Of a stretch of 64,000 nucleotides of DNA, positions 44,479 to 60,612 are shown piece by piece. The notes below the pieces were generated by a model. That model was not told the DNA's origin. It did no database searches and saw only the letters and a list, made by a program, of their open reading frames with translations. This DNA is from an uncultured delta proteobacterium (lineage in GTDB: Bacteria; Myxococcota_A; Polyangia; Fen-1088). Location of the stretch: assembly GCA_963737265.1 (NCBI GenBank), contig CAVTRY010000022.1:288001-352000 (forward strand), read 5' to 3'. Position numbers and translations under genes: made by a program. Numbering within the stretch: the first letter of the stretch is position 1; every line of letters starts with the position of its first letter.

Positions 44479-44674
44479 AGTATCGAATGGTAGCGGATCA
44501 AGCGAGGATGACCAAGAAACCGCACCAAGCGCGAAAACCGTGCCCCAGCGCGACTGCAGGCGGGCAGCAAGACAGGACCGACAAAGGGAGCAAGAAGGGA
44601 CCAACAGGGGAAACAAGGGGAGATCGTTTGCCTGCCTGGCTCGCGGGTGGTATAGACCACACCGGAGCTAGCCA

Positions 44675-44905
44675 ATGGGTCTCGGAACTGGCGAAATCAT
44701 CCTCATTTTTCTGGTGGTCATGGTCGTGTTCGGCGCCAGCAAGCTGCCCCAGCTGGGTGACGGGCTGGGCCGCGCGATCAAGAACTTCAAGCGGGCGGTG
44801 AACAGCGCGAACGAAATCGACGTTTCGCCGAAGAAGCCCGAGATCGACGGTACCGGCCAGCCGGAAAAGGCTGAAGCGGCCAAGCCGACCGACAAGGCTT
44901 TGTAG
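44675..44905 (+). CDS. tatA: Twin-arginine translocase subunit TatA
   Basis: EIILIFLVVMVVFGASKLPQLGDGLGRAIKNFK. Confidence 0.95.
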   Translation: MGLGTGEIILIFLVVMVVFGASKLPQLGDGLGRAIKNFKRAVNSANEIDVSPKKPEIDGTGQPEKAEAAKPTDKAL

Positions 44906-45068
44906 GCACGCCCGTCTCCGCAGCATTGATGGCCGGGATCTGTTCTCCGGCGAGGACGAGCCGTGCAACATCAGTCGCGATTTCATAAAGCGGACAAAAA
45001 ATGTCTGTGTTTGCGCGTTCGTATAAATTCGTCCTTGACGCGTTAATGTGACGATGCAAGATAGCAGC

Positions 45069-45323
45069 ATGACAACACGCACGATCAAGCGATATTCGAA
45101 TCGCAAACTGTACGACACCACCGATTCGCACTACGTGACTCTCCAGCAGATTGCTGGACTCATTCGCAACGGCGACGAAATTCGCGTCATCGACAAAACC
45201 ACCCAGCAGGACCTAACCGCCGCCACGATGGCCCAGATTATCTTCGAAGAAGAGAAGCGGGGACCGAGGCTGCCGGTCGAAGGTCTTCGCCGCATCATCC
45301 GAAGTGGGCTACCGGCCCATTAG
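45069..45323 (+). CDS. PhaR-type PHA-regulator DNA-binding-domain protein
   Basis: IKRYSNRKLYDTTDSHYVTL...DLTAATMAQIIFEEE. Confidence 0.88.
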   Translation: MTTRTIKRYSNRKLYDTTDSHYVTLQQIAGLIRNGDEIRVIDKTTQQDLTAATMAQIIFEEEKRGPRLPVEGLRRIIRSGLPAH

Positions 45324-45344
45324 CCTGTCGCGAAGCGATCTGGT

Positions 45345-46409
45345 CTAGTAATTCAGACCCGCGCTGAGCGAAAACGCGCTCTGCTGTCCACTTTGGTCGA
45401 CGGCGGGGGCGACGTTGTCGTCGCGGCTGTGGCCTGCTTGGTAAAGCTCGTACTGGGCGATGATGGCCAAGACCCCGAATTTGAGTTTCGCACCGCCGAA
45501 GACGCGATAGCGGGTGATCAAGTCCTGGCCGGGGAATGCCGCATTGGCGAGCAGGTCGTTGGTTGTGCCGCTTTGTGCGACGGTGCAGCGGTCGCTGACC
45601 TGTTGGCCGGGCGCCGCTTGCGCCACGGCGTGTGCATCACACAGCGGCGTGAAGTCGATGGGTTTGCCGCTGGCGCTGATTAGGATCAGGCTCAAGCCGC
45701 CAAAGGGCTCCAAACGCGCGGTCTTGAGCAGGCCAAAGCCCTTGGAGATGAGCACGTCGAAGGTATTGGTTCGCAAGTTCGCCTGATCGGTACCGGTCAC
45801 GTACGACATGGCGGCGCGCACCGAAAGCGAAGGCACGGGCCAATCGTGAAAGCCTTCGTGCAAGGCTACCTTGGCGTAGCCCTGCCAGGACAGCATTTGC
45901 GAATCGAGAAGGTTGACCACGCCGCCGCCGATTTCGAGCGCCGGCATGGGCCACCACATGCCCTTGCGCAAGAAGAATCCCATGGTCGTCAGCGTCGCGT
46001 CGGGCCGGGAACTATTCGCAGCCTGAGGCGAAACCGCGCTGACGCCATTCCAGAAGCCCTTGGTGTTGCTAATCTGGGTGAATCCCAGTTCGCCTGTCAC
46101 CATGAAGCCCGCGAAACCGATGGTGTCGGCCGGCATGGGAACTCGGGGCGCCAACACCACACCAAGCTCCGACATCAGGCTGCGAAAATTGCTGCGGCCC
46201 TCCCCGTCGATGGCCACGCCCGTGACTAGTCCATTGGCATCGCGCTTCACCCAGATGCACTCTTGCACGTTGAGAGCGGACGTCGTGGCCAACGGACAGA
46301 GGTTGATCAACTTCAGATCGTTCCTGCCGGCCAAGGCCTTTCCGGCGACTGCGATCGGAGGGAGCCCAATGACGAACACTACGAGTCGGAGGGTTCGATG
46401 CGGGCTCAT
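45345..46409 (-). CDS. Putative outer-membrane beta-barrel protein of unknown function
   Basis: Signal peptide, amphipathic strands, C-terminal SLSAGLNY. Confidence 0.6.
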   Translation of the reverse strand: MSPHRTLRLVVFVIGLPPIAVAGKALAGRNDLKLINLCPLATTSALNVQECIWVKRDANGLVTGVAIDGEGRSNFRSLMSELGVVLAPRVPMPADTIGFAGFMVTGELGFTQISNTKGFWNGVSAVSPQAANSSRPDATLTTMGFFLRKGMWWPMPALEIGGGVVNLLDSQMLSWQGYAKVALHEGFHDWPVPSLSVRAAMSYVTGTDQANLRTNTFDVLISKGFGLLKTARLEPFGGLSLILISASGKPIDFTPLCDAHAVAQAAPGQQVSDRCTVAQSGTTNDLLANAAFPGQDLITRYRVFGGAKLKFGVLAIIAQYELYQAGHSRDDNVAPAVDQSGQQSAFSLSAGLNY

Positions 46410-46504
46410 CAAGCTAGAACGGTATGTGGCCGCGGCAAGGCCTGTCAAGGAACGCGGATTCTTGGCGCGATTTGCCCTGCGGAGTGAGCGGAGTGAGGAA
46501 GCTA

Positions 46505-46534
46505 TTGACAAGTCCGGCATACTGTGAACATAAT
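46505..46534 (+). promoter_or_regulatory. sigma70 promoter of rex
   Basis: TTGACA-N18-CATAAT. Confidence 0.6.
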
Positions 46535-46539
46535 CACAG
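46522..46539. promoter_or_regulatory. Rex operator overlapping the rex -10 box
   Basis: CTGTGAACATAATCACAG, an 18-bp palindrome matching the TTGTGAA-N4-TTCACAA consensus. Confidence 0.8.
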
Positions 46540-46543
46540 CATC

Positions 46544-47227
46544 GTGAGTGCCACCGCGCCCGCCCCTGATGTTAGCTTTCCAGCTGTGGAAACGGCGAGG
46601 AAAGCGGATCGGCGCGTGTCCGTCTCGACGGTGGAAAGGCTCAGCGTCTATCGCAAGGTCCTGGAAGAGCTGCACTACGACGGCGTTGAATACGCGTACT
46701 CTCAGCAACTAGCGGAGATGGTTGGGGTTACGCCCGCTCAACTGCGCCGCGACCTGGCCAGCTTTGGTTCCTTCGGCAACATCAGTCGCGGGTACAACGT
46801 CTATCAACTGACGCGCACGATCAGCCGGATTCTCGGCACCGACGCGGCCCAAACTGTGGCGCTGTTCGGGGTTGGAGATCTCGGGCGATCCCTGCTCGCC
46901 TATCGGGGTTTCGAAGAACGCGGGTTCCACATCGGCGTGGTCTTCGATCTGGATGCCGAAAAGGCTGGCAGAGTTTTCGCCGGCCGGCGCTGTTTCCACG
47001 TCGAGCAAATGGAAAAAGTTCTGCCCGAGTTCGACGTGCGCATCGCCATTCTTGCCTGCCGGCCACCCGGCTTGCAGCAGGTCGTGGATCGGCTCGCCAA
47101 GCTGGGAATCACGTCGATTTTGAACTTCGTGCCCAAGCGAATTTCTCCCGCATCCGGAGGCTACGTGGAGAGCATCGACCTGGCGGCGAAGTTAGAGAAG
47201 CTCTCGTTTCTCAGCCAGAAGAGGTAG
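46544..47227 (+). CDS. rex: Redox-sensing transcriptional repressor Rex
   Basis: TVERLSVY, TPAQLRRDLASFG, GYNV, Rossmann GVGDLG, ILNFVP. Confidence 0.93.
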   Translation: MSATAPAPDVSFPAVETARKADRRVSVSTVERLSVYRKVLEELHYDGVEYAYSQQLAEMVGVTPAQLRRDLASFGSFGNISRGYNVYQLTRTISRILGTDAAQTVALFGVGDLGRSLLAYRGFEERGFHIGVVFDLDAEKAGRVFAGRRCFHVEQMEKVLPEFDVRIAILACRPPGLQQVVDRLAKLGITSILNFVPKRISPASGGYVESIDLAAKLEKLSFLSQKR

Positions 47228-47273
47228 TTCTCCGCAGTCGATTGGTTTTTCAAGATAGGCAGACCACTTGGCA

Positions 47274-47291
47274 CTGTGAAAGTTTTCACTG
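47274..47291. promoter_or_regulatory. Rex operator upstream of the hydrogenase operon
   Basis: CTGTGAAAGTTTTCACTG, 18 bp, GTGAA-N4-TTCAC core. Confidence 0.8.
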
Positions 47292-47360
47292 TTAATTTCG
47301 CGAACTTAGACCACCTGTTCCGTTTGCTCCAACCCTACGTGAAGGAAAGGACATGACATC

Positions 47361-47780
47361 ATGACAAAGCGCATTTTGGTCGTGGATGATGACAAAGATC
47401 TCGTGCGAGCCGTGAGCACCGTGCTCGAGTCGCGCGGCTATGCCGTGACGACGGCTCACAACGGTACCGAGGCCCTGGCCAAGGTCGCTGCCAGCCAGCC
47501 CGCTCTCATCGTTCTCGACGTCATGATGGACACTGACGCCGAAGGGTTCGGCGTGGCCTACAAGCTCGAAGCCGATCCGGCGACCCGCCGAATTCCCATC
47601 ATTCTGCTCTCGGGCTTTACCGATCACATGGCGACCAAGTACGAGTCGTTCGAATTTATCCAGGGACGCGACTGGCCGGCCGCCAAGTTCATGAAGAAGC
47701 CAGTCAGCATGCCCGAGCTGGTAGCGACCATCGGCAAGCTTCTTGCCGAAGCCGAGTCGTTGCGCGCGGCCGTGGCTTAG
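47361..47780 (+). CDS. Single-domain response regulator (receiver only)
   Basis: ILVVDDD, LDVMM, LLSG, KKP. Confidence 0.92.
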   Translation: MTKRILVVDDDKDLVRAVSTVLESRGYAVTTAHNGTEALAKVAASQPALIVLDVMMDTDAEGFGVAYKLEADPATRRIPIILLSGFTDHMATKYESFEFIQGRDWPAAKFMKKPVSMPELVATIGKLLAEAESLRAAVA

Positions 47781-47831
47781 TTGTAGTCGTTCCACCCCCA
47801 AACCACCTAAGAAGACCCCGAGGTAAGCAGT

Positions 47832-48314
47832 ATGTGTGACGTGGACCAGATCATTGCGGGACACGAGGAGCTTGGCAAAGAGCACCTCATCCCCCTGCTA
47901 CAAGAGATTCAAGCGAAGGAAGGGTACGTTTCCGAAACCGCGATGTCGAAGGTGGCAACCGCCGTCGGTATTCCCGAAAGCCGCGTTTATGGCGTGGCTA
48001 CCTTCTACAACCAGTTTCGTTTCATCCCCAAGGGAACCCACGTCATCGAGGTGTGTCGGGGAACCGCATGCCACGTCAAGCAAAGCCTGAAGCTGGCGCA
48101 GCACCTCACGCGCAGGCTGAGCCTCAAGCCCAACGGCAATTCGCCGGACAACAAGTTCACGGTTATCACCGTGGCTTGCCTCGGGGCCTGCTCGATCGCG
48201 CCCGTCATCAAGCTGGACGGCGAATTCTACGGTCACCTCGACGTGGACAAGCTGGACCATCTCCTCGACGAAGTCACCCAGGAAACAAAGGGAGGCAGCG
48301 ATGCGCGCAAGTAA
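47832..48314 (+). CDS. hydC: NuoE-like [2Fe-2S] subunit HydC
   Basis: GVATFYNQF, CRGTAC, CLGAC. Confidence 0.9.
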   Translation: MCDVDQIIAGHEELGKEHLIPLLQEIQAKEGYVSETAMSKVATAVGIPESRVYGVATFYNQFRFIPKGTHVIEVCRGTACHVKQSLKLAQHLTRRLSLKPNGNSPDNKFTVITVACLGACSIAPVIKLDGEFYGHLDVDKLDHLLDEVTQETKGGSDARK

Positions 48315-50313
48315 TCTGGTCGCCGCCTGTTGCACCCGTTGCACGCACGCCCCCATCACGCCGTGTCGCGATCTGATTCGCTGTCTTAGCGAAGGTCCGA
48401 TCTGCCATCACGACGAGGGCTGCGCGCAGAAGCGCAAGGAGAATCTCGTTCACGCTCGGCGAGGTGGAGCGGGAACCCTAATCTTCGTCGGAGCAGGTAC
48501 GTGCGGACGGGCTAACGGTGCCAACAAAGTCATCGCCGACATCCACGCTTTCTTGAAGGAGCACGCTATCGCGGCCGAGGTCGTGGAGGTTGGCTGCGTT
48601 GGCTATTGCCAACGCGAAGTCTTCGTCGACGTCGAAAAGGCGGGCGGCCCCCGACTTTCCTACTGCGACATCAACCCCTCAAACGTCGGCGAATTTCTCG
48701 ACCTGCTTTTCACGCAGGACAACGCCCGCAATCGTTTCCTTTACGGCCGCCACGGCCAGGCCGGCGCGGAATGGGCCGACGTTCCCGAGGTCGCCACCAC
48801 GCCCTTCTTCAAGCAGCAAGTGAAAGTCGTGCTTCGCAACGCCGGTCTCATCGATCCCGGCGCGCTCGATTCCGCGCTTGCGGTCGGCGCCTTCCGGGCC
48901 GCCTCGCGCGCCGTCGGCAGCATGACGCCCGAGGAAGTTTGCAACGAAGTGCTCGCCTCCGGCTTGCGCGGCCGCGGCGGCGCGGGATTTCCCACCGGCC
49001 AAAAGTGGAACATCGCCCGGCAAACGCCGCGTGCGCAGAAGTACCTCATCTGCAACGCAGACGAAGGCGATCCGGGCGCGTTCATGGATCGCGCGGTGCT
49101 GGAAAGCGATCCCTTCTTCGTCATCGAAGGCATGATCATCGCGGCCTACGCCATTGGCGCATCCAAGGGCTACATCTACTGCCGCGCGGAGTATCCGCTC
49201 GCCATCGAACGCCTGGCCGACGCCATCGCCCAGTGCCGCCGCGTGGGATTGCTCGGCAACAACATTCTAGGCAGCTTGTTTTCCTTCGACATCACGATCA
49301 AGCAAGGCGCGGGTGCCTTCGTGTGCGGCGAGGAAACCGCCATCCTTGCCAGCATCGAAGGCGGTCGCGGCATGCCCCGTCCCCGTCCGCCCTACCCGGC
49401 GGTCAGCGGTTTGCACGGCAAGCCCACGGTCCTTAACAACGTCGAGACCCTGGCCAATGTGCCCATCATCGTCGACCGCGGCGCCGCGTACTTCCAGAGC
49501 TTGGGCCTCGGTAAAGCCGCCGGGACTAAGGTCTTCGCACTATCCGGTACGATCCAGAATACCGGCCTCGTCGAAGTACCGGTTGGCGTTCCGCTCAAGA
49601 CCATCATTTACGACATCGGCGGCGGCGCGCTGCCCGGCCACGAAATCAAGGCCGTGCAGATTGGCGGCCCGTCCGGTGGCTGCATCCCGCGCGAGCACCT
49701 CGACGTCGCCACGGACTACGGTACCTTGATCGAGCTCGGGGCCATGATGGGCTCGGGCGGCATGGTGGTGATGGACGAGCGCACGTGCATGGTCGCCATC
49801 GCTCGCTTCTTCATGGAATTCATCCGCAACGAATCGTGCGGCAAGTGCACGCCCTGTCGTGAGGGCACCACGCGCCTGTCCGAGATTCTCACCTCGCTCA
49901 CCGAACGTCCGGTGGGCGACGAGGAGAAACGCTTGGAGCGCATCCGCGGAGTGCTGCACATGCGCGAGCTGGCTTCCACGGTGAAGGAGGCTTCATTGTG
50001 CGGCCTCGGTCAAACCGCCGCCAATCCCGTGCTTTCAACCCTGCGCTTCTTCCGCGACGAGTACGAAGCGCATGTTATCGACCAGCGCTGCCCCGCCGGC
50101 GAATGCCAAGGGTTGGCCATCTACGCCGTCGACAACGCGACCTGCGTCGGCTGTCTGCTGTGCAAGAAAGCCTGCCCGAGCAACGCCATCGTGGGCGAAC
50201 GCAAACAGGCGCATTACATTCTGGTCGACCGCTGTATCGGCTGCGGCTCGTGTGTCAGCGCCTGTCCCAAGCACTCAATCCATGTCGTTCAAGAAGAGAG
50301 GGCCTACGCATGA
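48301..50313 (+). CDS. hydB: NuoF-like FMN/NAD-binding subunit HydB
   Basis: LRGRGGAGF, CNADEGDPGAFMD, CGEET, GGPSGG, SCGKCTPC, C-terminal 2x[4Fe-4S]. Confidence 0.92.
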   Translation: MRASNLVAACCTRCTHAPITPCRDLIRCLSEGPICHHDEGCAQKRKENLVHARRGGAGTLIFVGAGTCGRANGANKVIADIHAFLKEHAIAAEVVEVGCVGYCQREVFVDVEKAGGPRLSYCDINPSNVGEFLDLLFTQDNARNRFLYGRHGQAGAEWADVPEVATTPFFKQQVKVVLRNAGLIDPGALDSALAVGAFRAASRAVGSMTPEEVCNEVLASGLRGRGGAGFPTGQKWNIARQTPRAQKYLICNADEGDPGAFMDRAVLESDPFFVIEGMIIAAYAIGASKGYIYCRAEYPLAIERLADAIAQCRRVGLLGNNILGSLFSFDITIKQGAGAFVCGEETAILASIEGGRGMPRPRPPYPAVSGLHGKPTVLNNVETLANVPIIVDRGAAYFQSLGLGKAAGTKVFALSGTIQNTGLVEVPVGVPLKTIIYDIGGGALPGHEIKAVQIGGPSGGCIPREHLDVATDYGTLIELGAMMGSGGMVVMDERTCMVAIARFFMEFIRNESCGKCTPCREGTTRLSEILTSLTERPVGDEEKRLERIRGVLHMRELASTVKEASLCGLGQTAANPVLSTLRFFRDEYEAHVIDQRCPAGECQGLAIYAVDNATCVGCLLCKKACPSNAIVGERKQAHYILVDRCIGCGSCVSACPKHSIHVVQEERAYA

Positions 50314-52034
50314 GCGTCGTCATCGATGGTAAAGAAGTAGAATTCACCAACGGCGAGACGGTGCTGGCGGCGGCCGAGCGTTCGGGAATTTCCATCCCGC
50401 ACCTGTGCTCGCTCGATTGGGCATGCAAGTCCGAGGCGGCCTGCCGCATGTGCTTGGTCGAGATTGAGGGCATGCCACGCTTGCAGACGAGCTGCACCCT
50501 GGAGGCCAAGGACGGCATGAAGGTGAAGACCCGTTCGCCGCGTGTGCAGGCGATTCGGCGCAATCTCGTCGAATTGCTCATCGCCAATCACCCCAACGAT
50601 TGTCTGGTGTGCGCGCGTAACCAGAACTGCGAGCTGGCACAGGTGGCGAGCGAGCTCGGCGTGCGCGAACGGCGCTATCGCGGTCTCAAGAAAAATCATG
50701 CCATCGACGTGTCCTCTCCGTCGCTGGTGCGCGACCCCAACAAGTGTATCTTGTGTGGCCGCTGCGTGGCCGTGTGCCATTCCGTACAAGGGGTGGGCGC
50801 CATCGATTTCATCGAGCGCGGTTTCAAGACGCGCGTCGGGCCCGGATTTCACGATGGTATCAACGTCTCGTCGTGCATCTTCTGCGGGCAGTGCACCCGC
50901 GTGTGCCCGACCGCGGCTCTCATGGAGAAGAGCCAGGTCGACGACGTCATCGCGGCCCTGTCCGACCCGAATGTCGTGGTTGTGGCGCAGGTGGCGCCCG
51001 CGGTTCCTGCCACGCTGATGGAAAAGGCCAAGGCCAGCTCGGTGCGGACGATGCTGCTCAAGTTGGCGGCGGCGCTCAAGCGAGTGGGCTTCGGCGCGGT
51101 GTTCGACACCGGATTCGCGGCGGATCTGACCATCATGGAGGAGGTGTCCGAGCTCATCCGCAGGGTTCAGCAAGGAGGCCCCTTGCCCATGTTCACCAGC
51201 TGTTCGCCGGGCTGGATTCAGTACGTGGAAACCCAGCGCCCCGAGCTGATTCCCCACCTGTCCACTTGCAAATCTCCGCAGCAAATGGCGGCGGCGCTCA
51301 TCAAAGACGTGTACCCGCGCCACCGCGACCTCGGCGGCAAGCGGCTGGTGTGCGTTTCCCTCATGCCCTGCACGGCCAAGAAATTCGAAGCCAGCGAGCT
51401 CGGCGACGTCGACTTCGTGCTCACCACGCGCGAGATCGAACAGTTGCTTCTCCGCTTCGGCATCGACCTCGCGAAGGTTACCGAGCAAGGCATGCTGGAT
51501 CCGCCGTTCTCCTCGGCGACCGGCGCCGGCCGGCTCTTTGGCGGCACGGGCGGCGTGATGGAGGCGGCCATTCGAACCGCCCACAAGATGCTGACCGGGG
51601 AGGAGCTCAAGGGCGGCCTCAAGGTCGAAGAGGCGCGCGGTCTCGAAGGCATGAAGTCCTTTTCGCTCGACGTGGGTGGAACCACGCTCAACTTCGGCAT
51701 CGTCAACGGGCTCGGCCGGCTCAAGCCCATGCTCGATCCCATCCGCAAGGGCACGTCCAACCTGCACTTCATCGAAGTCATGACCTGCCCCGGCGGTTGC
51801 ATCGGCGGCGGCGGCCAACCTTACGACACCGATCCCGAAGCCATCCGCATTCGCCTCGAACGTATCTACGAAGCCGACCGGCGCTCCACGCTCAGGACTT
51901 CGCACGAAAATGACGAAGTGAAGACCTTGTACACCGAGATGCTGGGCCAGCCGCTCGGCGAGGTAAGCCACCACTTGCTTCACCGCTCGTACGTCGATCG
52001 CAGCCGCAAGGAGGCGCCAACGGACGCTCGCTAG
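50310..52034 (+). CDS. hydA: [FeFe]-hydrogenase catalytic subunit HydA (group A, trimeric type)
   Basis: N-terminal [2Fe-2S], HxxxCxxC and 2x[4Fe-4S]; H-cluster motifs TSCSPGW, MPCTAKKFE, EVMTCPGGCIGGGGQP. Confidence 0.94.
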   Translation: MSVVIDGKEVEFTNGETVLAAAERSGISIPHLCSLDWACKSEAACRMCLVEIEGMPRLQTSCTLEAKDGMKVKTRSPRVQAIRRNLVELLIANHPNDCLVCARNQNCELAQVASELGVRERRYRGLKKNHAIDVSSPSLVRDPNKCILCGRCVAVCHSVQGVGAIDFIERGFKTRVGPGFHDGINVSSCIFCGQCTRVCPTAALMEKSQVDDVIAALSDPNVVVVAQVAPAVPATLMEKAKASSVRTMLLKLAAALKRVGFGAVFDTGFAADLTIMEEVSELIRRVQQGGPLPMFTSCSPGWIQYVETQRPELIPHLSTCKSPQQMAAALIKDVYPRHRDLGGKRLVCVSLMPCTAKKFEASELGDVDFVLTTREIEQLLLRFGIDLAKVTEQGMLDPPFSSATGAGRLFGGTGGVMEAAIRTAHKMLTGEELKGGLKVEEARGLEGMKSFSLDVGGTTLNFGIVNGLGRLKPMLDPIRKGTSNLHFIEVMTCPGGCIGGGGQPYDTDPEAIRIRLERIYEADRRSTLRTSHENDEVKTLYTEMLGQPLGEVSHHLLHRSYVDRSRKEAPTDAR

Positions 52035-52037
52035 CTC

Positions 52038-54065
52038 ATGGGAGTTATCCAGACCATCAATCAGAACTGCCGACGATGCTATTCGTGCGTGCGCGATTGC
52101 CCGGCCAAGGCAATCAAGATCGTCGAGGGTCAAGCCTCGGTGGTCATCGAACGCTGCATCTCGTGCGGCAACTGCACGGTGGTCTGCTCCCAGAACGCCA
52201 AGGCCTACGCCAGCGGCACCGAACGCGTTCTTGAGCTGTTGGCGGGCGGGAAACCGGTGGTCGCGATGGTCGCGCCGTCCTTTCCCGCCGACGATTGCGG
52301 CGAGGATGCCGAGCGCTTGGTGGGCGCGCTTCGCCAGCTCGGGTTCAGCCATGTCGTGGAAGTGGCGTTCGGAGCCGATCTCACCAGCCGCGCCTACCAA
52401 GCGTACATCAAGGAACATCCGACGGGCACGCGCGTGGCGACCGCCTGCCCCGCAGTGGCCGAGTATGTGCGCAAGTACAACCCTGATCTCGTCGGCTGCC
52501 TTATCCCCATCGTCTCGCCCATGATCGCGACCGCCATGGCGGTACAGGCAATCCACGGCAAGGATCACGCGTGCGTGTTCATCGGGCCGTGCGTGGCCAA
52601 GAAGCGCGAAATGCTCGACCCGCAAGTCCCTGCGGTCGTCCAGGCCGTGTTGACCTTCGACGAGCTTCGCCGCCTCTTCGCCGAACGTGGCGTGCGCGTG
52701 GCCGGGGCAACGCCGTCCGATTTCGATCCGCCGCACGCGGGATCTGGGCGCCTCTACCCTTTTGTAGGTGGCCTGCTCAAGAGCGCCGGTATCGAGCGCA
52801 ACACGCTGAATGCCGAGGTCATGGTTCTTTCTGGCGCCCCCGAGATCATTGAGGTCTTGGGCGACCTGCGACCAGACGACCCCGAGCCGTTGTTCGTCGA
52901 GCCGCTCATGTGCCGGGGTTGCTACAGCGGACCCGCGATGCGCGGCGATAGCCGCCGCCTGCAACGCAAACGACGCGTGGCCGAATACGTGAAATCGCGC
53001 TTGGCGGAGGCAACCACGGAACCGACCAAGATGCCCGAGCTCGATCTACATCGCGCCTTCACCCCCGACGACCAGCGCCTGAAAGAGCCCACCGAACAAG
53101 AGATCCGCGTGATCCTGTCGCGCACCAACAAGTTCACCGTCGAGGACGAGCTCAACTGTGGCGCCTGCGGCTACACCACCTGCCGGGCCAAGGCCGTGGC
53201 GGTGTTTCGCGGCCTCGCCGAAGAGGCCATGTGTCTGCCCTTCATGATCGAGCAGGCCGAGCGCGTGTGCCACGAGCTCAAGGTGCCCTGGCCCAATCTC
53301 AAGGACATCCACCGCCACCTTATCAACACCGAGAAGCTGGCTTCCATGGGACAGATGGCGGCCGGGGTTGCCCACGAGCTCAACAATCCCCTCGGCACCA
53401 TTCTGCTCTACACCAACATCCTCATGCGCAAGCTCAAGGAGCGGCCCGACCTCGACCACGACCTCAAGCTGCTCGTCGATGAGGCGAATCGCTGCAAGAA
53501 GATCATCGGCAATCTGCTCGATTTCGCGCGTCAGAATCGCGCCCAGATTGAGCGCACCGACATCGCCGAGCTTCTGCGTCGGGTGGTGGAGGAATCGCTT
53601 TTCGCTTTGAGCGACGTGGGGCCGGGACTCGAGGTCACCTGCGAGGCGCCCATCGATCTTTTCGCCGACATCGACAAGGACCAAATCGGTCAGGTATTGG
53701 TCAATCTGGTGAAGAACGGCATCGAGGCCATGGAGGGCAAGGCCGGCGTCGTGCGCCTGGTTGCCGTCGACGTGCCCGCCACCAGCCGCGTGCGCATCGC
53801 GGTCAGCGACCAGGGACGCGGCATCGCTCCCGAGGCGCGCGACAAGGTCTTTCAGCCGTTTTTCACCACCAAGAGCCTCGGGCGTGGTACGGGACTCGGC
53901 CTGCCCATCGCCTACGGTATCGTGAAAATGCACAGTGGAAGAATTTGGTTCGATTCGGTGCAAGGTCAGGGAACGACCTTCACCCTCGAGCTTCCCAAGA
54001 CCCAATCCCTGCGAAGGAGCATGCCAAATAATGACGAAAAGCCTCAAGATTCTATTTGTCGATGA
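52038..54065 (+). CDS. Sensory (group C-type) [FeFe]-hydrogenase fused to a histidine kinase
   Basis: 2x[4Fe-4S], TACP, GPCVAKKRE, MCRGCYSGP, CGACGYTTC FeS domain, then AHELNNPL, NLVKNG, DQGRG, GTGLGL. Confidence 0.9.
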   Translation: MGVIQTINQNCRRCYSCVRDCPAKAIKIVEGQASVVIERCISCGNCTVVCSQNAKAYASGTERVLELLAGGKPVVAMVAPSFPADDCGEDAERLVGALRQLGFSHVVEVAFGADLTSRAYQAYIKEHPTGTRVATACPAVAEYVRKYNPDLVGCLIPIVSPMIATAMAVQAIHGKDHACVFIGPCVAKKREMLDPQVPAVVQAVLTFDELRRLFAERGVRVAGATPSDFDPPHAGSGRLYPFVGGLLKSAGIERNTLNAEVMVLSGAPEIIEVLGDLRPDDPEPLFVEPLMCRGCYSGPAMRGDSRRLQRKRRVAEYVKSRLAEATTEPTKMPELDLHRAFTPDDQRLKEPTEQEIRVILSRTNKFTVEDELNCGACGYTTCRAKAVAVFRGLAEEAMCLPFMIEQAERVCHELKVPWPNLKDIHRHLINTEKLASMGQMAAGVAHELNNPLGTILLYTNILMRKLKERPDLDHDLKLLVDEANRCKKIIGNLLDFARQNRAQIERTDIAELLRRVVEESLFALSDVGPGLEVTCEAPIDLFADIDKDQIGQVLVNLVKNGIEAMEGKAGVVRLVAVDVPATSRVRIAVSDQGRGIAPEARDKVFQPFFTTKSLGRGTGLGLPIAYGIVKMHSGRIWFDSVQGQGTTFTLELPKTQSLRRSMPNNDEKPQDSICR

Positions 54066-54453
54066 CGACCGCGATTTTCTCGCCGCCCAGACCGCCTTCT
54101 TTCGCGGCCGTGGCTACCACGTCGCCAGTATCGATCGCGTCGAGGGCGCGCTCGAGCTCATCGCGCAGGAAAAGCCCGACGTCATCGTGCTCGACCTCAT
54201 GATGGAGCACCACGATTCCGGCTTCCTGCTTGGTCGCCGCATTCGTCGTGATCCCAACATGGGATCCGTCCCCATTATCATGCTGTCCGGCGTGGCTGCG
54301 GCGACCGGACACAAGTTTTCCGCCGACGCCGCCGCGCTCAAGGAATGGATAAAGCTCGATGCCTTCCTCGATAAGCCGGTCACCGGGCGCCAACTCTGCA
54401 AGACCATCGAAGAGAAGCTGGCGGCGCGCGCGCCGGCCGCAGCCGTGGGGTAA
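54031..54453 (+). CDS. Single-domain response regulator (receiver only)
   Basis: ILFVDDD, LDLMM, MLSG, DKP. Confidence 0.9.
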   Translation: MTKSLKILFVDDDRDFLAAQTAFFRGRGYHVASIDRVEGALELIAQEKPDVIVLDLMMEHHDSGFLLGRRIRRDPNMGSVPIIMLSGVAAATGHKFSADAAALKEWIKLDAFLDKPVTGRQLCKTIEEKLAARAPAAAVG

Positions 54454-54455
54454 TC

Positions 54456-55916
54456 TTGCCGAGCGTTCTCGTCATCGACGACGAATACGGCGTTCGTTCC
54501 GGGATCCGCCAGATCCTGGAAATGGAAGGCTACGTCGTCGAGCTCGCTGCCACCGGGCGCGAGGCGCTGGCGCTGCTCGACCAGAAGCGTTTCGACATCG
54601 CGCTTATCGACTACCAACTGCCCGACGTGGACGGATTGACCCTGCTGTCGACCATGCGCAGCCGCAAGCTGCCCACCATGACGTGCATGATCACCGCCTA
54701 CGCGAACATCGACACCGCCATCGCGGCCACCCGGCAGGGCATCGACTTCTTTCTGCCCAAACCGTTTTCGCCCGACGATTTGCTCGGCGTGATGGAAACC
54801 CTGTCGCGCCACAAGCGCCTCAAGGAAGAAGCGGAAAAGCTGCGGCGTGAAAACGAGGCGAACTTGCTCGCCTTGGCCACGGAAAAGAGCCAGACGAGCT
54901 CGCTCGTCTCGTCGTTGCGAGACGCGGTACTGGTCATCAATCGTGAGCGCGAGGTGGTGCTAGCCAACCATGCCATGGCGGAGCTGCTCGGGCACGTGCA
55001 GAAAGATCTGCTGCGCAAATCGGTCGACGCCGTGCTGGCCGAGGCATCGCTGGTCGGGCTCGCCGATCTGTTGCCTTCCTCGGGCGATGACGACCGCAAA
55101 ACTTCCGAGCTAACCGTCGGCGACAAGATCTTCTTTGCCAGCGCCGTGACCTTTCGCGGTGACGACGGCGTGGCCATGGGGCGCATCCTGACCCTGGCCG
55201 ACGTGACCGAAATGCGGCGCATGGCCATGGAGAAGCCGCGCTTCATTCGCACCATGGTGCACGAGTTTCGCTCCCCCCTCGGGGCGATTCGCAGCCTCAT
55301 CGAGGTCGCGCTCGACAAGAGCCTGGGCGGCGATGTCGCACCCTACTTGCCCTTCCTCGAACGCGCCGACCGTCGCATCGATAAGATGGTCGAGCTCATC
55401 GGCGACCTGCTGTCGTTGTCGCGCATCGATCTGGACAGGACGGCTAAGGTGTCGGTCGAGAACACGGATTTGCAAACGTGCGTGGCCTCGATTGCGGATC
55501 TCTACCGCGAAAAGATAGCTGCCCAGCAGATGGCATTCGCGATGGCCATCGCGCCTGGCCTCGCAGTTCGGATCGCCGACGAGGATCTTAAAACCGTCCT
55601 TGGCAATCTCGTCGGAAATGCCATCAAGTACAGCCGCGACACGGGCACGGTGCACATCAACGCCGCCCGCACGGACAGCGACATCGCCATCGAGGTCGTC
55701 GATGCCGGCATCGGCATCAAGCCCGAGAACCTGGCGCGCCTTTTCGAGGAGTTTTTTCGGGAAAAGCGGCCCGAAACCCGCGACATCGAGGGCAACGGTC
55801 TCGGCTTAGCGATCGTCAAGCGCCTAGTCGAGCGGGCCGGCGGCCGCGTCGAGGTCGCCAGCGTGCTCGGCCAAGGTTCCACCTTCCGCGTCGTCCTGCC
55901 CGCAAGTCCGGTTTGA
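54456..55916 (+). CDS. Hybrid kinase: receiver-PAS-HisKA-HATPase
   Basis: VIDDE...IDYQL...PKPF; PAS-like DAVLVIN; VHEFRSPL; NAIKY; DAGIG; GNGLGL. Confidence 0.9.
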   Translation: MPSVLVIDDEYGVRSGIRQILEMEGYVVELAATGREALALLDQKRFDIALIDYQLPDVDGLTLLSTMRSRKLPTMTCMITAYANIDTAIAATRQGIDFFLPKPFSPDDLLGVMETLSRHKRLKEEAEKLRRENEANLLALATEKSQTSSLVSSLRDAVLVINREREVVLANHAMAELLGHVQKDLLRKSVDAVLAEASLVGLADLLPSSGDDDRKTSELTVGDKIFFASAVTFRGDDGVAMGRILTLADVTEMRRMAMEKPRFIRTMVHEFRSPLGAIRSLIEVALDKSLGGDVAPYLPFLERADRRIDKMVELIGDLLSLSRIDLDRTAKVSVENTDLQTCVASIADLYREKIAAQQMAFAMAIAPGLAVRIADEDLKTVLGNLVGNAIKYSRDTGTVHINAARTDSDIAIEVVDAGIGIKPENLARLFEEFFREKRPETRDIEGNGLGLAIVKRLVERAGGRVEVASVLGQGSTFRVVLPASPV

Positions 55917-55950
55917 CCTACCGCTGCCGCTCCCGTAGCTTGCGCAGTCC

Positions 55951-57441
55951 ATGGATGCGCTTGCGATAGCAATTCTCGCCGCCGGCCTGGTGGCCCTGCT
56001 TGCCAGCGTGGCCCTGCTGGTCGGCTACCGTTTCGAGCGTTTCGTCGGAGTTCGCTACCTTCGACGAGCCACGCCTTCGCGCCCGGTGCGGTTCGGGCTG
56101 TGGACTTCGCTCGCGCTCACCATCGCCGGGCTGCTCGTCACCTTGGCGACGCGCAACCACCAGCGCGGCCTTGAGACGTGCGCGGTGATCGTCGTCGTGG
56201 TGGGCGGGTTCGCCAGCATTCTCTTTCTGCTGCTGCGGGTGTTCTCGGTCTTCACCACCGTTTCCACCATGGGTGTCATGCTCGGGGTGGCCTCGCTGGT
56301 CGTCGTGCTTTCGGTGACCAGCGGCTTCGAGCGCGAATTCAAGGAAAAGGTGCTGGCCGTCAATGCCCACCTGATCGTGACGTCCTATGGGCTGGAACGT
56401 AACGTCGACGAGGCCGATCGCGAGGCGGAGAAAGTGCGCAGGCAACTGGTCGGGTTTCCCGGCCTGGTGAGCACGTCGCGGTTCAGCTTCACCGCTGGCG
56501 AGGTGATGATTGGCAAGGTTGGCGCCAATCTCAAGGGCGTCGAAGTGTCCGAAGGCGTGCCCGAGCTGCGGCACGCGTTGATCGCGGGATCGGTCGACGA
56601 TCTTGCCAAGCCAGCCACCTGCGCGGGCACGGTGGCCGTGGCATCCGAAAGCGAGAAGATCGGACGCCTTATTCTTGGTTCCGATCTCGCCCACCGCGTG
56701 CACGCCGCCGTGGGAGACTGCGTGCAAGTGCTCGTGCCCTTCTCGGGCGACGTGGATTCCGCGCCGAGCGCCTACGCCTTCCGCGTGGTGGGCATTTTTT
56801 CCTTTGGCTTCCAGGAATACGACGCGCGCCTGGCCTTCATTCCCCTCGAAGACGCGCGCCGCCTGGGCAACGCACGCCAATCCATCTTCGGCGTCGAGGT
56901 GCGCTTCGCCGACCCCATGCAGGCCCTCACCGTCGAGGAAGACGTGCAAACGCGCCTCGGTCCCGAGATGCGCATCATCGACTGGAAGACGCTCAACCGG
57001 AATCTCTTCACCGCCCTCGCCATGCAGAAGCTCATCATCTCGCTGCTGCTCGTTCTCATCATCGTGGTCGCCGCCTTCAACATCGTCGCGTCGCTGATGC
57101 TGGTGGTGCTATCCAAGGTGCGCGAGGTCGCCATCCTTGCCTCCATGGGCGCGCGCTCGGGATCGCTCTTGCGTGTGTTCCTGGTGTCGGGCAGTTTCGT
57201 CGGCATCGTGGGCACCGGCTTTGGCATTCTCTACGGCCTGGCCCTGTGCGCCCTGGCCGCGCTCTATGGCTATCCCCTCGATCCCAAGGTGTACCTCATT
57301 GCGCGCTTGCCCGTGGAAGTGTCCCTTCGCGAGGTCCTGTTCGTCGCCGGTGCGACCCAGATCATCTGCTTTCTTGCCACACTCTATCCCGCCAAACGCG
57401 CCGCCCGCCAGCGCGTGGTCGACGGCCTCAAGTACGTGTGA
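55951..57441 (+). CDS. LolC/E-family ABC transporter permease
   Basis: RYLR, GVASLVVVLSVTSGF, DWKTLNRNLFTAL, VAAFNI, TLYPA. Confidence 0.88.
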   Translation: MDALAIAILAAGLVALLASVALLVGYRFERFVGVRYLRRATPSRPVRFGLWTSLALTIAGLLVTLATRNHQRGLETCAVIVVVVGGFASILFLLLRVFSVFTTVSTMGVMLGVASLVVVLSVTSGFEREFKEKVLAVNAHLIVTSYGLERNVDEADREAEKVRRQLVGFPGLVSTSRFSFTAGEVMIGKVGANLKGVEVSEGVPELRHALIAGSVDDLAKPATCAGTVAVASESEKIGRLILGSDLAHRVHAAVGDCVQVLVPFSGDVDSAPSAYAFRVVGIFSFGFQEYDARLAFIPLEDARRLGNARQSIFGVEVRFADPMQALTVEEDVQTRLGPEMRIIDWKTLNRNLFTALAMQKLIISLLLVLIIVVAAFNIVASLMLVVLSKVREVAILASMGARSGSLLRVFLVSGSFVGIVGTGFGILYGLALCALAALYGYPLDPKVYLIARLPVEVSLREVLFVAGATQIICFLATLYPAKRAARQRVVDGLKYV

Positions 57442-57458
57442 ACGGCATCCGACGCCAA

Positions 57459-58640
57459 CTACGTTTCGGGTACGGCGAGCGGTGCCGCTCTCGCGCTATC
57501 GTTTTCAGGTTGTCGGACCTTGCCCTTGTCGGCGTAGGAGAAGCGGTTCTTGAGACCGTTGATGGGTTTTTCAAACAGGTGCCACGACAGCATGGCGACG
57601 GCGAGCGTGATGGCGAGACCGACGCACGCGTTGGCCAAGTTGTAGCGACCGAAGTACTTGGCCGACCAGCCCAGGCAATTGGGATGAAAGAGATAGAGCC
57701 CGTAGCTGATTTGGCCGAAGTAAGCGAACGGGCGAAAGCCGAGCACGCGCGACGCAGGCGCGTTCGGCCGCTGCCACAGGGTCAGCACTGCTGCTGCCGT
57801 CGTGACTCCAAGCGACAGCGGGCCGAGCGTGGCGAAGAGGCCACCAAAGCCAGGCAAAGGCCGGTAGAACTGCGCGATGAAGACGACGAAGAACGCGCCA
57901 CTCGCGAGACCGAGCCGGCGTAGTCCGCGGGCGCCGATGGCAAGAAAATGGCCCTTACGCTCGATGATGGCGGTGGCGATGCCGAGCCCGAGCAGGTCGA
58001 ACTGCATGGGGGAAAGCACCCAGAAATCGCGGCCGGATCCGGTCCAGTACACCGTGGCCCGGGCAAGTGCCACGGCGACGACAACCCCGATGAGCAATCG
58101 TGCAAGGGCGCGCGGACTGGCCAGCAGAACGACGAGCGGCGCGAGCAGATAGAAATGCTCTTCAACCGCCAGGCTCCAGAGGTGGCCCTCGTGCACTTGA
58201 TTCATGCCCACGAAGAAGGAACGGAAATTCGTGAGATAGGCCAGGTGCCAGGCAAAACTATCGCGCGCAATCGGATCAAGACGACCGGACAGCAGTAGCA
58301 GCACGGCCAAAATCCCGATGAACAGGTAATAGACGGGAAAAATGCGCAGGGCGCGCCGGATGTAGAAGGTCTTGAGCTTGGCCGCGAGCCCGAAGCCGGG
58401 ACGCTGCTTCGCCTTGAGGTCGAGGAGGATGCCGCCGATCAGGAACCCGGACAGGACGAAGAAAATGGGCACGCCAAGATAACCGAAGCGGACGAACGGC
58501 AACTTGCCCCACCGGCTCCATTGCAGGGCGTGGAAGAAGAACACCAGAACGAAGGCGAAAAAGCGCAAGCCGTCGAGGGCGCGGTTGTGGCTCTTGTCGG
58601 ATGGTGCAGCTGACGGCGTTGCTTGGCGGATCCGTTGCAT
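57459..58640 (-). CDS. Acyltransferase family 3 (OafA-like O-acetyltransferase)
   Basis: LDGLR, FFVLSGFLI, RRALRI, HLWSLAVEEHFY, SYGLYLFH, EKP. Confidence 0.92.
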   Translation of the reverse strand: MQRIRQATPSAAPSDKSHNRALDGLRFFAFVLVFFFHALQWSRWGKLPFVRFGYLGVPIFFVLSGFLIGGILLDLKAKQRPGFGLAAKLKTFYIRRALRIFPVYYLFIGILAVLLLLSGRLDPIARDSFAWHLAYLTNFRSFFVGMNQVHEGHLWSLAVEEHFYLLAPLVVLLASPRALARLLIGVVVAVALARATVYWTGSGRDFWVLSPMQFDLLGLGIATAIIERKGHFLAIGARGLRRLGLASGAFFVVFIAQFYRPLPGFGGLFATLGPLSLGVTTAAAVLTLWQRPNAPASRVLGFRPFAYFGQISYGLYLFHPNCLGWSAKYFGRYNLANACVGLAITLAVAMLSWHLFEKPINGLKNRFSYADKGKVRQPENDSARAAPLAVPET

Positions 58641-58723
58641 GGCCTATTGGAACCTTAATACATTCTTGCCGCGCGGATTGCACTTCGCACGGTCTCACGA
58701 CCGAAAGCGGCCGGAGCTTCAGG

Positions 58724-59170
58724 CTACGGCTTCTGCGTCTGCGTTTCGTACTTGGACGGGCACTTGGTCTCGATGCGATCGGAACTTAGGCGGCCGTCGT
58801 TGGCGAGCACGCCAGCGGCAATCACCTCGGCGCCGGGTTTGAATAGGTCGGGCGGGATGCCGTGGAAGTCCACCGTCATCGTTGCGTGCTCGCGCGGCGC
58901 CTTGCTTTCCATGACGAAATGGTAGTCCAGCGTGCCGGCTTGATGGACGAGAGATCCGTCGACCACGTTGCCGTGCACGCGCAGGCGCTTGCCGGTCAGG
59001 TGCGCCTGGCTGTCGCGCGCTTCGTCCACGTGCTTGTAATATTCGGCCCCTTCGCCCAGCGAGGCCCACAGCAACCCGGTCAGCGCGCACGCCGACACCA
59101 CGACCGTAAGAAGGATCTTCCACGCGGTGCGCCGACTGACCGCCCCCGTCTTGCCAGAAACCGCACTCAT
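58724..59170 (-). CDS. ccmE: Heme chaperone CcmE, CxxxY variant
   Basis: N-terminal TM helix, LRVHGNV, GIPPDLFK, KCPSKY. Confidence 0.9.
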   Translation of the reverse strand: MSAVSGKTGAVSRRTAWKILLTVVVSACALTGLLWASLGEGAEYYKHVDEARDSQAHLTGKRLRVHGNVVDGSLVHQAGTLDYHFVMESKAPREHATMTVDFHGIPPDLFKPGAEVIAAGVLANDGRLSSDRIETKCPSKYETQTQKP

Positions 59171-59211
59171 GCGGAAAAGATACCCTCCAATCGCCGCGGT
59201 GCAAGCTGCGA

Positions 59212-60612
59212 CTAGCCCCGACCGATTGCGGCGAGGTTGTGAAAGTAGCGGTGGAACATGGCGATGCCGCCCGCAGCCTGGGACCAAGCGAAGCTCTCGT
59301 TGATGGCGTGGTAGCCATCCTCGGGAAGCGACAGGCCAAGCAGCACGACCTCTTTGCGCAGAACCTTAGTCATGGTCACGACCGCGCCAATCGAGCCGCC
59401 CTCGCGCGTGAGCGCGGGCTTTTTGCCGAAGGTTTCGAGCGAGGCCCGAACCGCTGCCTGCAAAAAAGGACCGGTCGTGTCGGCAAGATAGGGCTCGAGA
59501 GCTGCCTCGAAGATGACCTTGGCGTCAGGACACCTACTGGCGATGAAGCTCTTGATGCGGCGAAGGACTTGGGCTGGCTTTTGGTCGGCGACCAGGCGAC
59601 ACGACAGCTTGGCTTCCGCGGAGTGAGGAACGATGGTCTTGACGCCCGGGCCGCAGTAGCCACCCACGATGCCATGCACCTCGAACGTCGGCGCCGTCAT
59701 GATGGCCTCGCGAAGGCGGGCGTCATCGGAAAAGCGCAGGCTGCGCAAGCCGTGCGCCTTTTGGAATTTCGCCCGAGCAAACCCTGTCAGCGCCAGCTCG
59801 CGGCGCTCGCTTGCGGTGGGTTTGCGGATGTCGTCATAGAAATGCGGAATGCGGACGCGACCGGTGCGGGCGTCGTAGCATTCCGCGATGAGTGCGCACA
59901 GCTCGCCGATTGGATTGCGTGCGGCGCCGCCGGTGGTTCCCGAGTGCACGGCCTTGTCGCCCGTTTGCAGGCGCACCAGGAAGCCGAGCAGTCCGCGCAA
60001 AGCGTAAGGAATCGCCGGCTGTCCCGCGGAGGGCCAAATGGTGTCCGACACCATGATCGAATCGGTGTGCAGTGCCGGCTGTCCCGGGCGACCTTTGACC
60101 AGCGCAGTGAGCGCCGCCGCAAAGCTCGGGCTGCCGATCTCTTCCTCGCACTCCCACAGAAATTGAAAATTGAGCTTCGCCGAGGCCGCCACGGCCAGCC
60201 GGGCCGCCAGCAGCGCGGCGAGCGCCGGGCCCTTGTCGTCGGTAGCACCGCGCCCGTGCAAGCGATCGCCGATGCATTCGAGCTTGAAGGGCGAGGTTCG
60301 CCAACCCTCGCTGTCGGCCGGCTGAACGTCGAGGTGATTGTAGATGGTGACGGTCGGAAACGCTGGGTCTTGAATCAGGCGGCCGAGCACGAGCGGCAGG
60401 CCCGCGGTCTCGACTAGCGCGGCTTCGGCGCCGCTTTCGCGCAGGTACGCGCAGGCAAGCTCGGCGCAGCGCCGAACGTCCGGGTGGCGCTGCGGCTCCA
60501 TGCTGACGGAGGGAAGGGCGACCAGGGCCGCGAGTTTGTCTGCAAATTCCTCGCGCAGATTGGAAATCTCCCGGCGGAGTTGCACAGAATTTTTCGATGA
60601 CGTGCTTTTCAC
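59212..60612 (-). CDS. M20-family metallopeptidase (dipeptidase-like)
   Basis: YNHLDVQP, GRGATDDKG, EEEIGS, HSG, GGSI, HAINE. Confidence 0.9.
   Translation of the reverse strand: MKSTSSKNSVQLRREISNLREEFADKLAALVALPSVSMEPQRHPDVRRCAELACAYLRESGAEAALVETAGLPLVLGRLIQDPAFPTVTIYNHLDVQPADSEGWRTSPFKLECIGDRLHGRGATDDKGPALAALLAARLAVAASAKLNFQFLWECEEEIGSPSFAAALTALVKGRPGQPALHTDSIMVSDTIWPSAGQPAIPYALRGLLGFLVRLQTGDKAVHSGTTGGAARNPIGELCALIAECYDARTGRVRIPHFYDDIRKPTASERRELALTGFARAKFQKAHGLRSLRFSDDARLREAIMTAPTFEVHGIVGGYCGPGVKTIVPHSAEAKLSCRLVADQKPAQVLRRIKSFIASRCPDAKVIFEAALEPYLADTTGPFLQAAVRASLETFGKKPALTREGGSIGAVVTMTKVLRKEVVLLGLSLPEDGYHAINESFAWSQAAGGIAMFHRYFHNLAAIGRG

Follow-up and report, generated by a model that had tools for sequence, protein, structure and literature searches.

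The stretch of DNA analysed here (the window: 64,000 nucleotides, positions 288,001 to 352,000 of contig CAVTRY010000022.1, assembly GCA_963737265.1) comes from an uncultured delta proteobacterium (GTDB lineage Myxococcota_A; Polyangia; Fen-1088). On its forward strand it carries an operon with the gene order rex, RR1, hydC, hydB, hydA, sensor gene, RR2 and a gene for a REC–PAS–kinase (RR, response regulator; REC, receiver domain). The sensor gene (52038..54065, ATG start, 675 amino acids), which is our subject, encodes a HydS-type [FeFe]-hydrogenase head joined to a histidine kinase. We consider it fairly probable that its product is an H2-gated, dimeric, cytoplasmic kinase, coupled to its head through a coiled coil and regulating the adjacent HydABC system.

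The Pfam matches on the sensor comprise Fe_hyd_lg_C (PF02906) at residues 72–299 (E = 2.7e-40), the iron–sulfur (FeS) family PF04060 at residues 372–401, HisKA at 437–499 and HATPase_c at 546–655, together with a weak Fer4 dicluster at residues 8–54; no PAS family is matched at E <= 0.001. The preliminary description of this gene, as coding for a hydrogenase head that runs into a histidine kinase without a PAS linker, is thus borne out, although it overlooked two N-terminal [4Fe–4S] motifs, the linker's heptad pattern and the surrounding operon. The two motifs (C11/14/17/21 and C40/43/46/50) make up a 2×[4Fe–4S] F-domain (52068..52187, on the forward strand like all features of the operon), recognized by Pfam and by conservation, each of these cysteines being kept in 120 of 121 aligned sequences. 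The H-domain (52251..52934), defined by the PF02906 match, by alignment with CpI and by conservation, contains the motifs P1 (TACP, residues 135–138, 52440–52451), P2 (GPCVAKKRE, residues 183–191, 52584–52610) and P3 (EPLMCRGCYSGP, residues 288–299, 52899–52934). In the HMMER alignment with CpI, A136 corresponds to C299, C137 to C300, G183 to M353, C185 to C355, K188 to K358, Y240 to F417, L290 to M497, C292 to C499 and C295 to C503, and P3 is one residue shorter than in CpI, between C292 and C295. The altered motifs announced beforehand (TACP, GPCxAKKxE and a short MCRGC) are therefore all present, but it is L290, and not the Met in MCRGC, that corresponds to M497.

The H-domain is followed by a C-terminal FeS domain (53157..53234, PF04060) with the ligands C374, C377, C382 and C399 (Cx2Cx4Cx16C); the first three lie in CGACGYTTC (residues 374–382). 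Next comes a 46-residue coiled-coil linker with the N-terminal DHp helix (53235..53372), marked by a Leu stripe at 400/407/414/421/428. The kinase (HisKA and HATPase_c, 53346..54002) was assigned by Pfam and a motif check: its H, N, G1, F and G2 boxes are intact (HELNNP at 446, NLVKNG at 556, DQGRG at 591, FQPFFTTK at 605 and GTGLGL at 617), and the phospho-acceptor His446 (53373–53375) lies within AHELNNPL, so that the order of CxxCGYxxC domain, helical linker and HisKA was correctly described. An AlphaFold monomer (mean pLDDT 80.7, 103 alignment rows) superposes on CbA5H over residues 2–344 (Z = 39.5, root-mean-square deviation 2.8, 342 aligned) and on the ZraS kinase (Z = 22.7, root-mean-square deviation 6.7, 200 aligned), the kinase-core matches spanning residues 448–657; ZraS is also the top PDB sequence match (E = 2e-32). 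The structural matches include no solved structure of group C or D, the FeS domain and linker not having been searched alone. A hydropathy peak of 2.1 at residues 151–169 was considered as a membrane anchor and rejected, since in the CpI alignment it falls on a core helix.

Residues 1–420 were used to search for homologues (8000 candidates scored, 5409 at E <= 1e-20, best 120 listed), and representatives were taken as the best 150 of 939 matches at E <= 1e-30 after clustering at 50%. The four H-cluster cysteines and K188 are invariant in all 121 aligned sequences, and the kinase H-box is common to 119 of the 120 listed homologues, the exception being a 402-residue fragment; given this conservation, the motifs of the sensor are not due to chance. 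A PAS family is listed for none of the 120. Among the 150 representatives, the kinase is fused directly in 36 and lies at least 141 residues away in eight, whereas a common tail of about 170 residues is found in 65 and a sigma-54-type tail in 14. A Pfam scan of the outputs covered 22 of the 150. PAS was matched in two of the three scanned members of the 170-residue-tail group and in one of three sigma-54 activators; GGDEF (three), MCP (two) and HisKA_3 (one) outputs showed no PAS match. The same HydS-type head thus carries five further output types, with and without PAS, and we conclude that it is a modular input for which PAS is optional throughout. The missing PAS, stressed at first in the description of this protein, is therefore nothing special: the head is likewise fused without PAS to sigma-54 activators, GGDEF and MCP domains. 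A PAS domain is in fact found two genes downstream of the sensor, in the relay kinase. Two Geobacteraceae loci (L007 and L010, 10001–12268) also carry the head directly on a sigma-54 activator, L007 with a helix–turn–helix domain, a one-component version.

In 119 of the 120 listed homologues the distance from C399 to H446 is 47 residues, and the linker is near-invariant in all 120. Over a wider range, the last FeS cysteine and the phospho-His are 33, 40, 47, 54 or 68 residues apart in 29 of the 36 direct-fusion representatives and in 28/28 of the kinase-fused loci described below, and positions 400, 407, 414, 421 and 428 are hydrophobic in 97–100% of 35 canonical 47-type linkers. In a FastTree phylogeny of the heads, built from 135 of 179 sequences and weak at its deep nodes, 11 of the 13 separate clades with a length other than 47 are in register (p = 3e-8 if independent). 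Discrete linker lengths in heptad steps are a recognized mark of a continuous signalling coiled coil in kinases (PMC6798134), and in the AlphaFold monomer the 46 residues between C399 and H446 are all helical. These heptad-locked lengths, together with the conserved position beside hydCBA, argue that the coupling of head and kinase is real.

The clade of the window sensor has a motif of its own in the linker (53268–53318, residues 411–427), namely C411, P417–W418, H425 and H427, complete in 112 of the 120 listed homologues. In the fast tree (SH-aLRT support, 58 of 135 sequences) this clade reaches 80.5, and 100 together with its sister P0128; it is placed as sister to the clade of L011 and Bacteroidota at only 75.8. 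The Cys/His motif is possibly a metal or thiol site. A disulfide of C411 across the dimer axis was considered because helix phase alone puts C411, W418 and H425 on one stripe, and was left unsupported: the interface of the dimer model described below includes 410, 413, 414, 418 and 425, but C411 and H427 are not among its listed residues.

Dimerization was predicted for residues 1–434, a construct lacking the DHp domain, alongside three controls. The homodimer scored 0.65, compared with 0.00 for the best control. Of 30 solved homodimers 20 attained the mark of the sensor, as did one of 23 single chains; at least 95% of contacts were common to the runs, with pLDDT of at least 84. Head and linker are thus predicted to dimerize without the kinase. 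The modelled interface consists of the helix 400–429 and of residues 12–19 packed against residues 371–376 and 396–401 of the partner. Residues 12–19 surround C14 and C17, which by analogy with CpI we take to belong to the outer cluster. The interface residues Y15, R19, L372, N373, G375, A376, M398 and P401 are conserved family-wide, across output types.

The remaining genes of the operon place the sensor beside a hydrogenase of HydABC type. The first is rex (46544..47227, start uncertain between 46544 and 46616), for an NADH/NAD+-sensing repressor (NF003995, 196.5 bits, cut-off 126), followed by RR1, a single-domain receiver found by Pfam with its Asp and Lys kept (47361..47780). Family profiles identify hydC (47832..48314, NuoE-like, [2Fe–2S]) and hydB (48301..50313, NuoF-like, with an FMN/NADH site and a C-terminal 2×[4Fe–4S]), while hydA (50310..52034, TIGR02512, 436 bits, cut-off 406) encodes the catalytic subunit (group A) of such a complex, with the motifs FTSCSPGW, MPCTAKKFE and EVMTCPGGCIGGGGQP. 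Its stop lies 3 bp ahead of the sensor gene. RR2, a second single-domain receiver (54031..54453, Pfam), starts within the sensor gene, overlapping it by 35 bp, and precedes the REC–PAS–HisKA–HATPase relay kinase (54456..55916, Pfam); from hydC onward the genes overlap or sit a few bases apart. The operon contains no DNA-binding receiver, so that the output would be at the protein level or via a regulator encoded elsewhere.

This layout is conserved across several phyla. In a sample of at least 31 GTDB loci (28 direct kinase fusions, two sigma-54 fusions and one fragment), hydA is directly upstream of the kinase-fused sensor gene, or one receiver gene off, in 25 of the 28 (two of the three misses have no upstream sequence); a REC–kinase follows in 26, an adjacent RR2-like receiver is present in 24 and rex in 14. 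The loci listed include representatives of Myxococcota, Actinomycetota, Bacteroidota, Ignavibacteria, Elusimicrobiota, Hydrogenedentota and Spirochaetota, and only L006 (Clostridia) has a DNA-binding receiver adjoining the sensor. Among the matches listed, the closest named locus is from Polyangiaceae (66% identity, same order without RR1). The protein had been seen as a one-protein cytoplasmic kinase: the histidine kinase is indeed intact and cytoplasmic, but it heads a conserved multi-protein relay. In the 28 kinase-fused loci listed, the four H-cluster cysteines and the equivalents of CpI K358 and E361 are each present in 28, those of P231/S232 in 27 and 26, and those of S323/P324 in 27 and 28. 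In the 36 distant direct fusions, the four cysteines are found in 34, 36, 36 and 35.

Two Rex-type boxes, the only ones in the window, lie in the start region of the operon. The first (46522–46539) covers the −10 element of a sigma-70-type promoter (TTGACA-18-CATAAT, 46505..46539) before rex, both being consensus matches only, and the second (47274..47291) lies 70 bp before RR1. Two boxes in a window are at chance level (shuffle mean 1.07, with at least two in 32 of 100 shuffles), and the case for them therefore rests on position and on recurrence across loci: a box stands at the start of the cluster in 10 of 12 rex-bearing loci compared with one of 10 without rex (nine loci not assessed; Fisher p = 0.002, inflated by relatedness).

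A kinase-linked subgroup of group C was expected from genomes. In HydDB, C1 is the histidine kinase-linked and C3 the phosphatase-linked type, all putative (PMC5037454), yet proteins like the window sensor are filed under C3 in two papers, so that the kinase fusion is indeed known from genomes but not under the label C1. The BfuT sub-type V of Zheng & Huang (2024), a 'T subunit' of the Bfu cluster, comprises kinase-bearing group C3 proteins encoded downstream of bfuA (119 sequences, as in Caldithrix abyssi; HydDB match WP_006928132.1; PMC11406978), and Williams et al. (2022) report a C3-filed kinase-bearing protein in Ca. Lernaella stagnicola (PMC9324843). In the published account, C1 proteins have an HATPase domain and hardly recognizable H-cluster motifs, unlike the window sensor (PMC11406978), and in one C1 example the kinase is encoded as a separate gene (PMC6163223). 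The window sensor shows both traits of sub-type V, a group C head with a kinase instead of PAS in one chain and a gene directly downstream of hydA/bfuA in the hydCBA cluster of a trimeric A3 enzyme; its identity to the Hydrogenedentales protein of L011, a locus with the sub-type V layout, is 45% over 665 residues. It differs in belonging to a separate clade with the Cys/Pro–Trp/His linker. The Bacteroidota members of sub-type V have, according to the same paper, an extra upstream PAS-type copy, which is present in L022, L025, L028 and L030. The type had also been called little studied. No biochemistry was found for it, but it is neither rare nor unnoticed, the supplement of PMC11406978 listing 119 sequences from one phylum. 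Linker analysis and receivers are absent from the parts of Zheng & Huang covered, 'response regulator' and 'Rex' giving no match in the main text (PMC11406978), and the literature searched held no linker analysis of kinase-fused members. Further reviews and related papers treat the field (PMC11216029, PMC5707799).

With its 2×[4Fe–4S], four H-cluster cysteines, replaced C299, M353 and M497 positions and Cx2Cx4Cx16C domain, the sensor has the sequence traits of group C/D HydS heads, and the predicted losses in the pocket of group C type hold, like substitutions being found in TmHydS (A131, G177, Y223, S267) and TamHydS (A137, S191, L291), both active once matured (PMC10055695, PMC11803613, PMC8163306, PMC10407848). 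TmHydS (Thermotoga maritima, group C, M2f) shares the 2×[4Fe–4S], H-domain and Cx2Cx4Cx16C, and Ala, Gly and Tyr at CpI positions 299, 353 and 417 (A136/G183/Y240 in the sensor), whereas it ends in a PAS domain without enzymatic output and has Ser instead of Leu at position 497. TamHydS (Thermoanaerobacter mathranii, group D, M2e) has the same three-domain head without PAS, beside a trimeric group A enzyme, and Ala and Leu at positions 299 and 497 (A137/L291, equivalent to A136/L290). However, it has no fused output, a Ser at position 353 and a proton path through Glu252 that has no counterpart here: the Glu252–Glu289–Ser249–Asp265 path is not found, and E288 matches Glu289, a residue that every group shares. 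At the site of Glu252, where group A has Val, the sensor has L246, with no Glu at 243–247, as mapped indirectly through CpI and not on the TamHydS sequence. The sensor is therefore not strictly M2f, because it has no PAS, nor group D, because it has no Glu252. The H-cluster and an N-terminal cluster of TamHydS are reduced by H2, the C-terminal cluster is not, and the secondary structure changes (PMC13104023).

Two other systems resemble the sensor in part. In the [NiFe] system HoxBC/HoxJ (NiFe 2b), H2 is sensed via a histidine kinase, and hydrogenase expression is under the control of this kinase (PMC5037454), with a different metal site and a separate, PAS-bearing kinase instead of one chain without PAS. 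Like the LOV kinase YF1 and the NtrB/ZraS-type cores, the sensor would have a parallel coiled coil running into the DHp with discrete linker lengths, while its input is a metallo-cluster head and not a LOV, PAS or GAF domain. The HoxBC/HoxJ system uses a DNA-binding regulator, whereas the receivers of the window have no DNA-binding domains.

Most likely, then, the sensor works like HydS with a built-in output. As in TmHydS and TamHydS, the head would hold three [4Fe–4S] clusters and, in a pocket of the slow, sensor type, an H-cluster, and oxidation of H2 would reduce the H-cluster and an N-terminal cluster. The loop of the outer N-terminal cluster is predicted to pack on the C-terminal FeS domain of the partner, which forms the base of a parallel coiled coil predicted to run directly into the DHp helix. 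If the linker lengths are a guide, a small change at this hinge could twist the coiled coil and shift the balance of kinase and phosphatase activities at His446; no PAS would be needed, and the C-terminal cluster would be a structural pivot and not a redox switch. From gene order, the phosphate would pass to RR2 and to the REC domain of the REC–PAS–kinase, then to RR1, while transcription of the operon would be gated separately by Rex, in response to NADH. That H2 lowers the net kinase activity is a guess, for which the NiFe sensor system offers a loose analogy.

Several points weigh against an H2-gated, coiled-coil-coupled kinase. The sensory role of group C has itself been called putative (PMC8924675), and no biochemical study of a kinase-fused member was found in the mainly open-access literature searched. 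The sensor lacks both the proton path of group A and the Glu252 of group D. P3 is short (CxGC) in 35 of the 36 direct fusions and in one of 65 PAS-only relatives, 63 of which have CxxGC; the C299 position is variable, with Ala in only seven of the 36 representatives and elsewhere Pro, Thr, Asp or Ser; and the K358 equivalent is absent in eight of the 36. None of the 51 other open reading frames scanned in the window is a maturase gene; HydE/HydG lie within 10 kb at nine of the 31 loci listed (above cut-offs, by motif screen and profile scan), but maturases near relatives serve HydA too. As for the coupling, five direct fusions to other kinase types are off-register (24, 24, 27, 34 and 38), as are two to the same NtrB type (48 and 49), and a Pro–Trp breaks the linker helix in the clade of the window sensor. 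Finally, a coiled coil may pass the dimer test by likeness to solved ones, and in TamHydS a similar predicted parallel dimer was rated low-probability by PISA, the contact between N- and C-terminal domains being placed inside one chain (PMC13104023); the cross-subunit contact proposed here may therefore be misassigned.

We may wonder whether the head reports H2 at all, or rather the general low-potential redox state: the H-cluster would be present, but the clusters would be set by ferredoxin or through contact with HydABC, the kinase then reporting the electron pool and H2 only indirectly. The exposed ferredoxin-type 2×[4Fe–4S] domain, with a loop at the predicted hinge, would suit such a role, as would the position of the gene 3 bp behind hydA, the 'T subunit' label of Zheng & Huang (PMC11406978) and the absence of a clear proton path. 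We nevertheless hold this to be rather unlikely, as the H-cluster pocket is conserved beyond the needs of an electron wire, the N-terminal cluster of TamHydS is reduced by H2 alone (PMC13104023) and the NADH status is already covered by the Rex of the operon.

A Nar1-like head without the 2Fe subsite, holding only [4Fe–4S] clusters, sensing O2, oxidative stress or FeS status and switching the hydrogenase operon accordingly, seems to us distinctly unlikely. Nar1 proteins keep similar motifs, so that motifs alone do not separate the two cases, and the short P3, the C299 and K358 variation, the extra conserved C411/H425/H427 of the clade and a probably myxobacterium-like host that may meet O2 would all fit. 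Yet the closest characterized relatives, which share the pocket substitutions of the sensor, take up the cofactor, the operonic loci keep the positions that bind CN, and C411 and H427 lie outside the listed interface residues. Moreover, regulators with a degenerate H-domain form a separate and apparently far more decayed type. Such a protein, combining HATPase_c, a decayed H-domain and FeS, is encoded at L003:391-1956; it fits the 'group C1' type of Zheng & Huang and differs from the sensor. An uncoupled fusion, in which a minor catalytic hydrogenase is joined to a kinase run by partners such as the receivers or controlling the head, would agree with the Pro–Trp-broken linker and a monomer pLDDT below 50 at 427–449, but is made very improbable by register-keeping length changes, a near-invariant linker in 120 homologues and repeated output swapping on the same head.

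The architecture and the operon are already in print (Zheng & Huang, 2024; Williams et al., 2022); new here are the linker lengths in steps of seven, the predicted head dimer, the relay without a DNA-binding receiver and the Rex boxes before the operon. Returning to the H2-gated kinase, we would, with much less confidence, extend its mechanism to PAS-independent signalling by all HydS-type sensors: the outer N-terminal cluster of one subunit, reduced by H2, might press on the partner's FeS domain at the foot of the register-locked coiled coil and so switch any output (kinase, GGDEF, MCP, sigma-54 activator or PAS), the receivers might tune the bifurcating hydrogenase at the protein level with Rex in charge of transcription, and in the clade of the window sensor the linker Cys/His could serve as a second input for metal or O2. 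As a natural fusion of head and kinase with its likely receivers in one operon, the system offers a direct in vitro readout of H2 signal transfer, and the linker-length variants are a ready test of coupling. If the reading is true, it would represent an H2-controlled phosphorylation system of anaerobes in several phyla and possibly a part for H2 biosensors. The value lies with the family and not with the copy in the window, its relatives being many.

Some variations among the relatives should also be noted. The C299 position is Asp in 16 of the 28 kinase-fused loci listed (the Bacteroidota sensor genes of L014–L016 and L018–L030); this Asp could restore a proton-carrying residue, and the Bacteroidota sensors may be more active than that of the window. 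A further group C gene, whose product has a tail of about 210 residues, is found at L022:3534-5411, L025:3366-5258, L028:3735-5612, L030:1-1601 and L014:16603-18456, mostly divergent from hydC and with a PAS match in one of four scanned. In L003, L004, L005 and L008, a second hydC–hydB–hydA set with a short HydB (about 400 residues) lies past the relay kinase, each preceded by a single-domain receiver, as RR1 precedes hydC in the window. RR2-type receivers, including that at 54031–54453, share inserted residues behind strand 4 (TG-x-x-F … W-x-K-x-D), possibly a partner-binding surface. The P1 of HydA is TSCSP, the Ser form reported by Zheng & Huang for most sub-types (PMC11406978).

Within the window, no Rfam match was found at 44000–60000 and no meaningful repeats in the operon. 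HydB opens with a prefix domain rich in Cys (48301–48450, CCxxC; NF040902, 58 bits, cut-off 45). A myxobacterial TIGR02266 match occurs among the open reading frames of the window and, together with the Polyangiaceae locus, points to a Myxococcota host. Finally, a LysM lytic transglycosylase gene on the reverse strand (42322–44616) appears to be split over several frames, owing to frameshifts or assembly errors.

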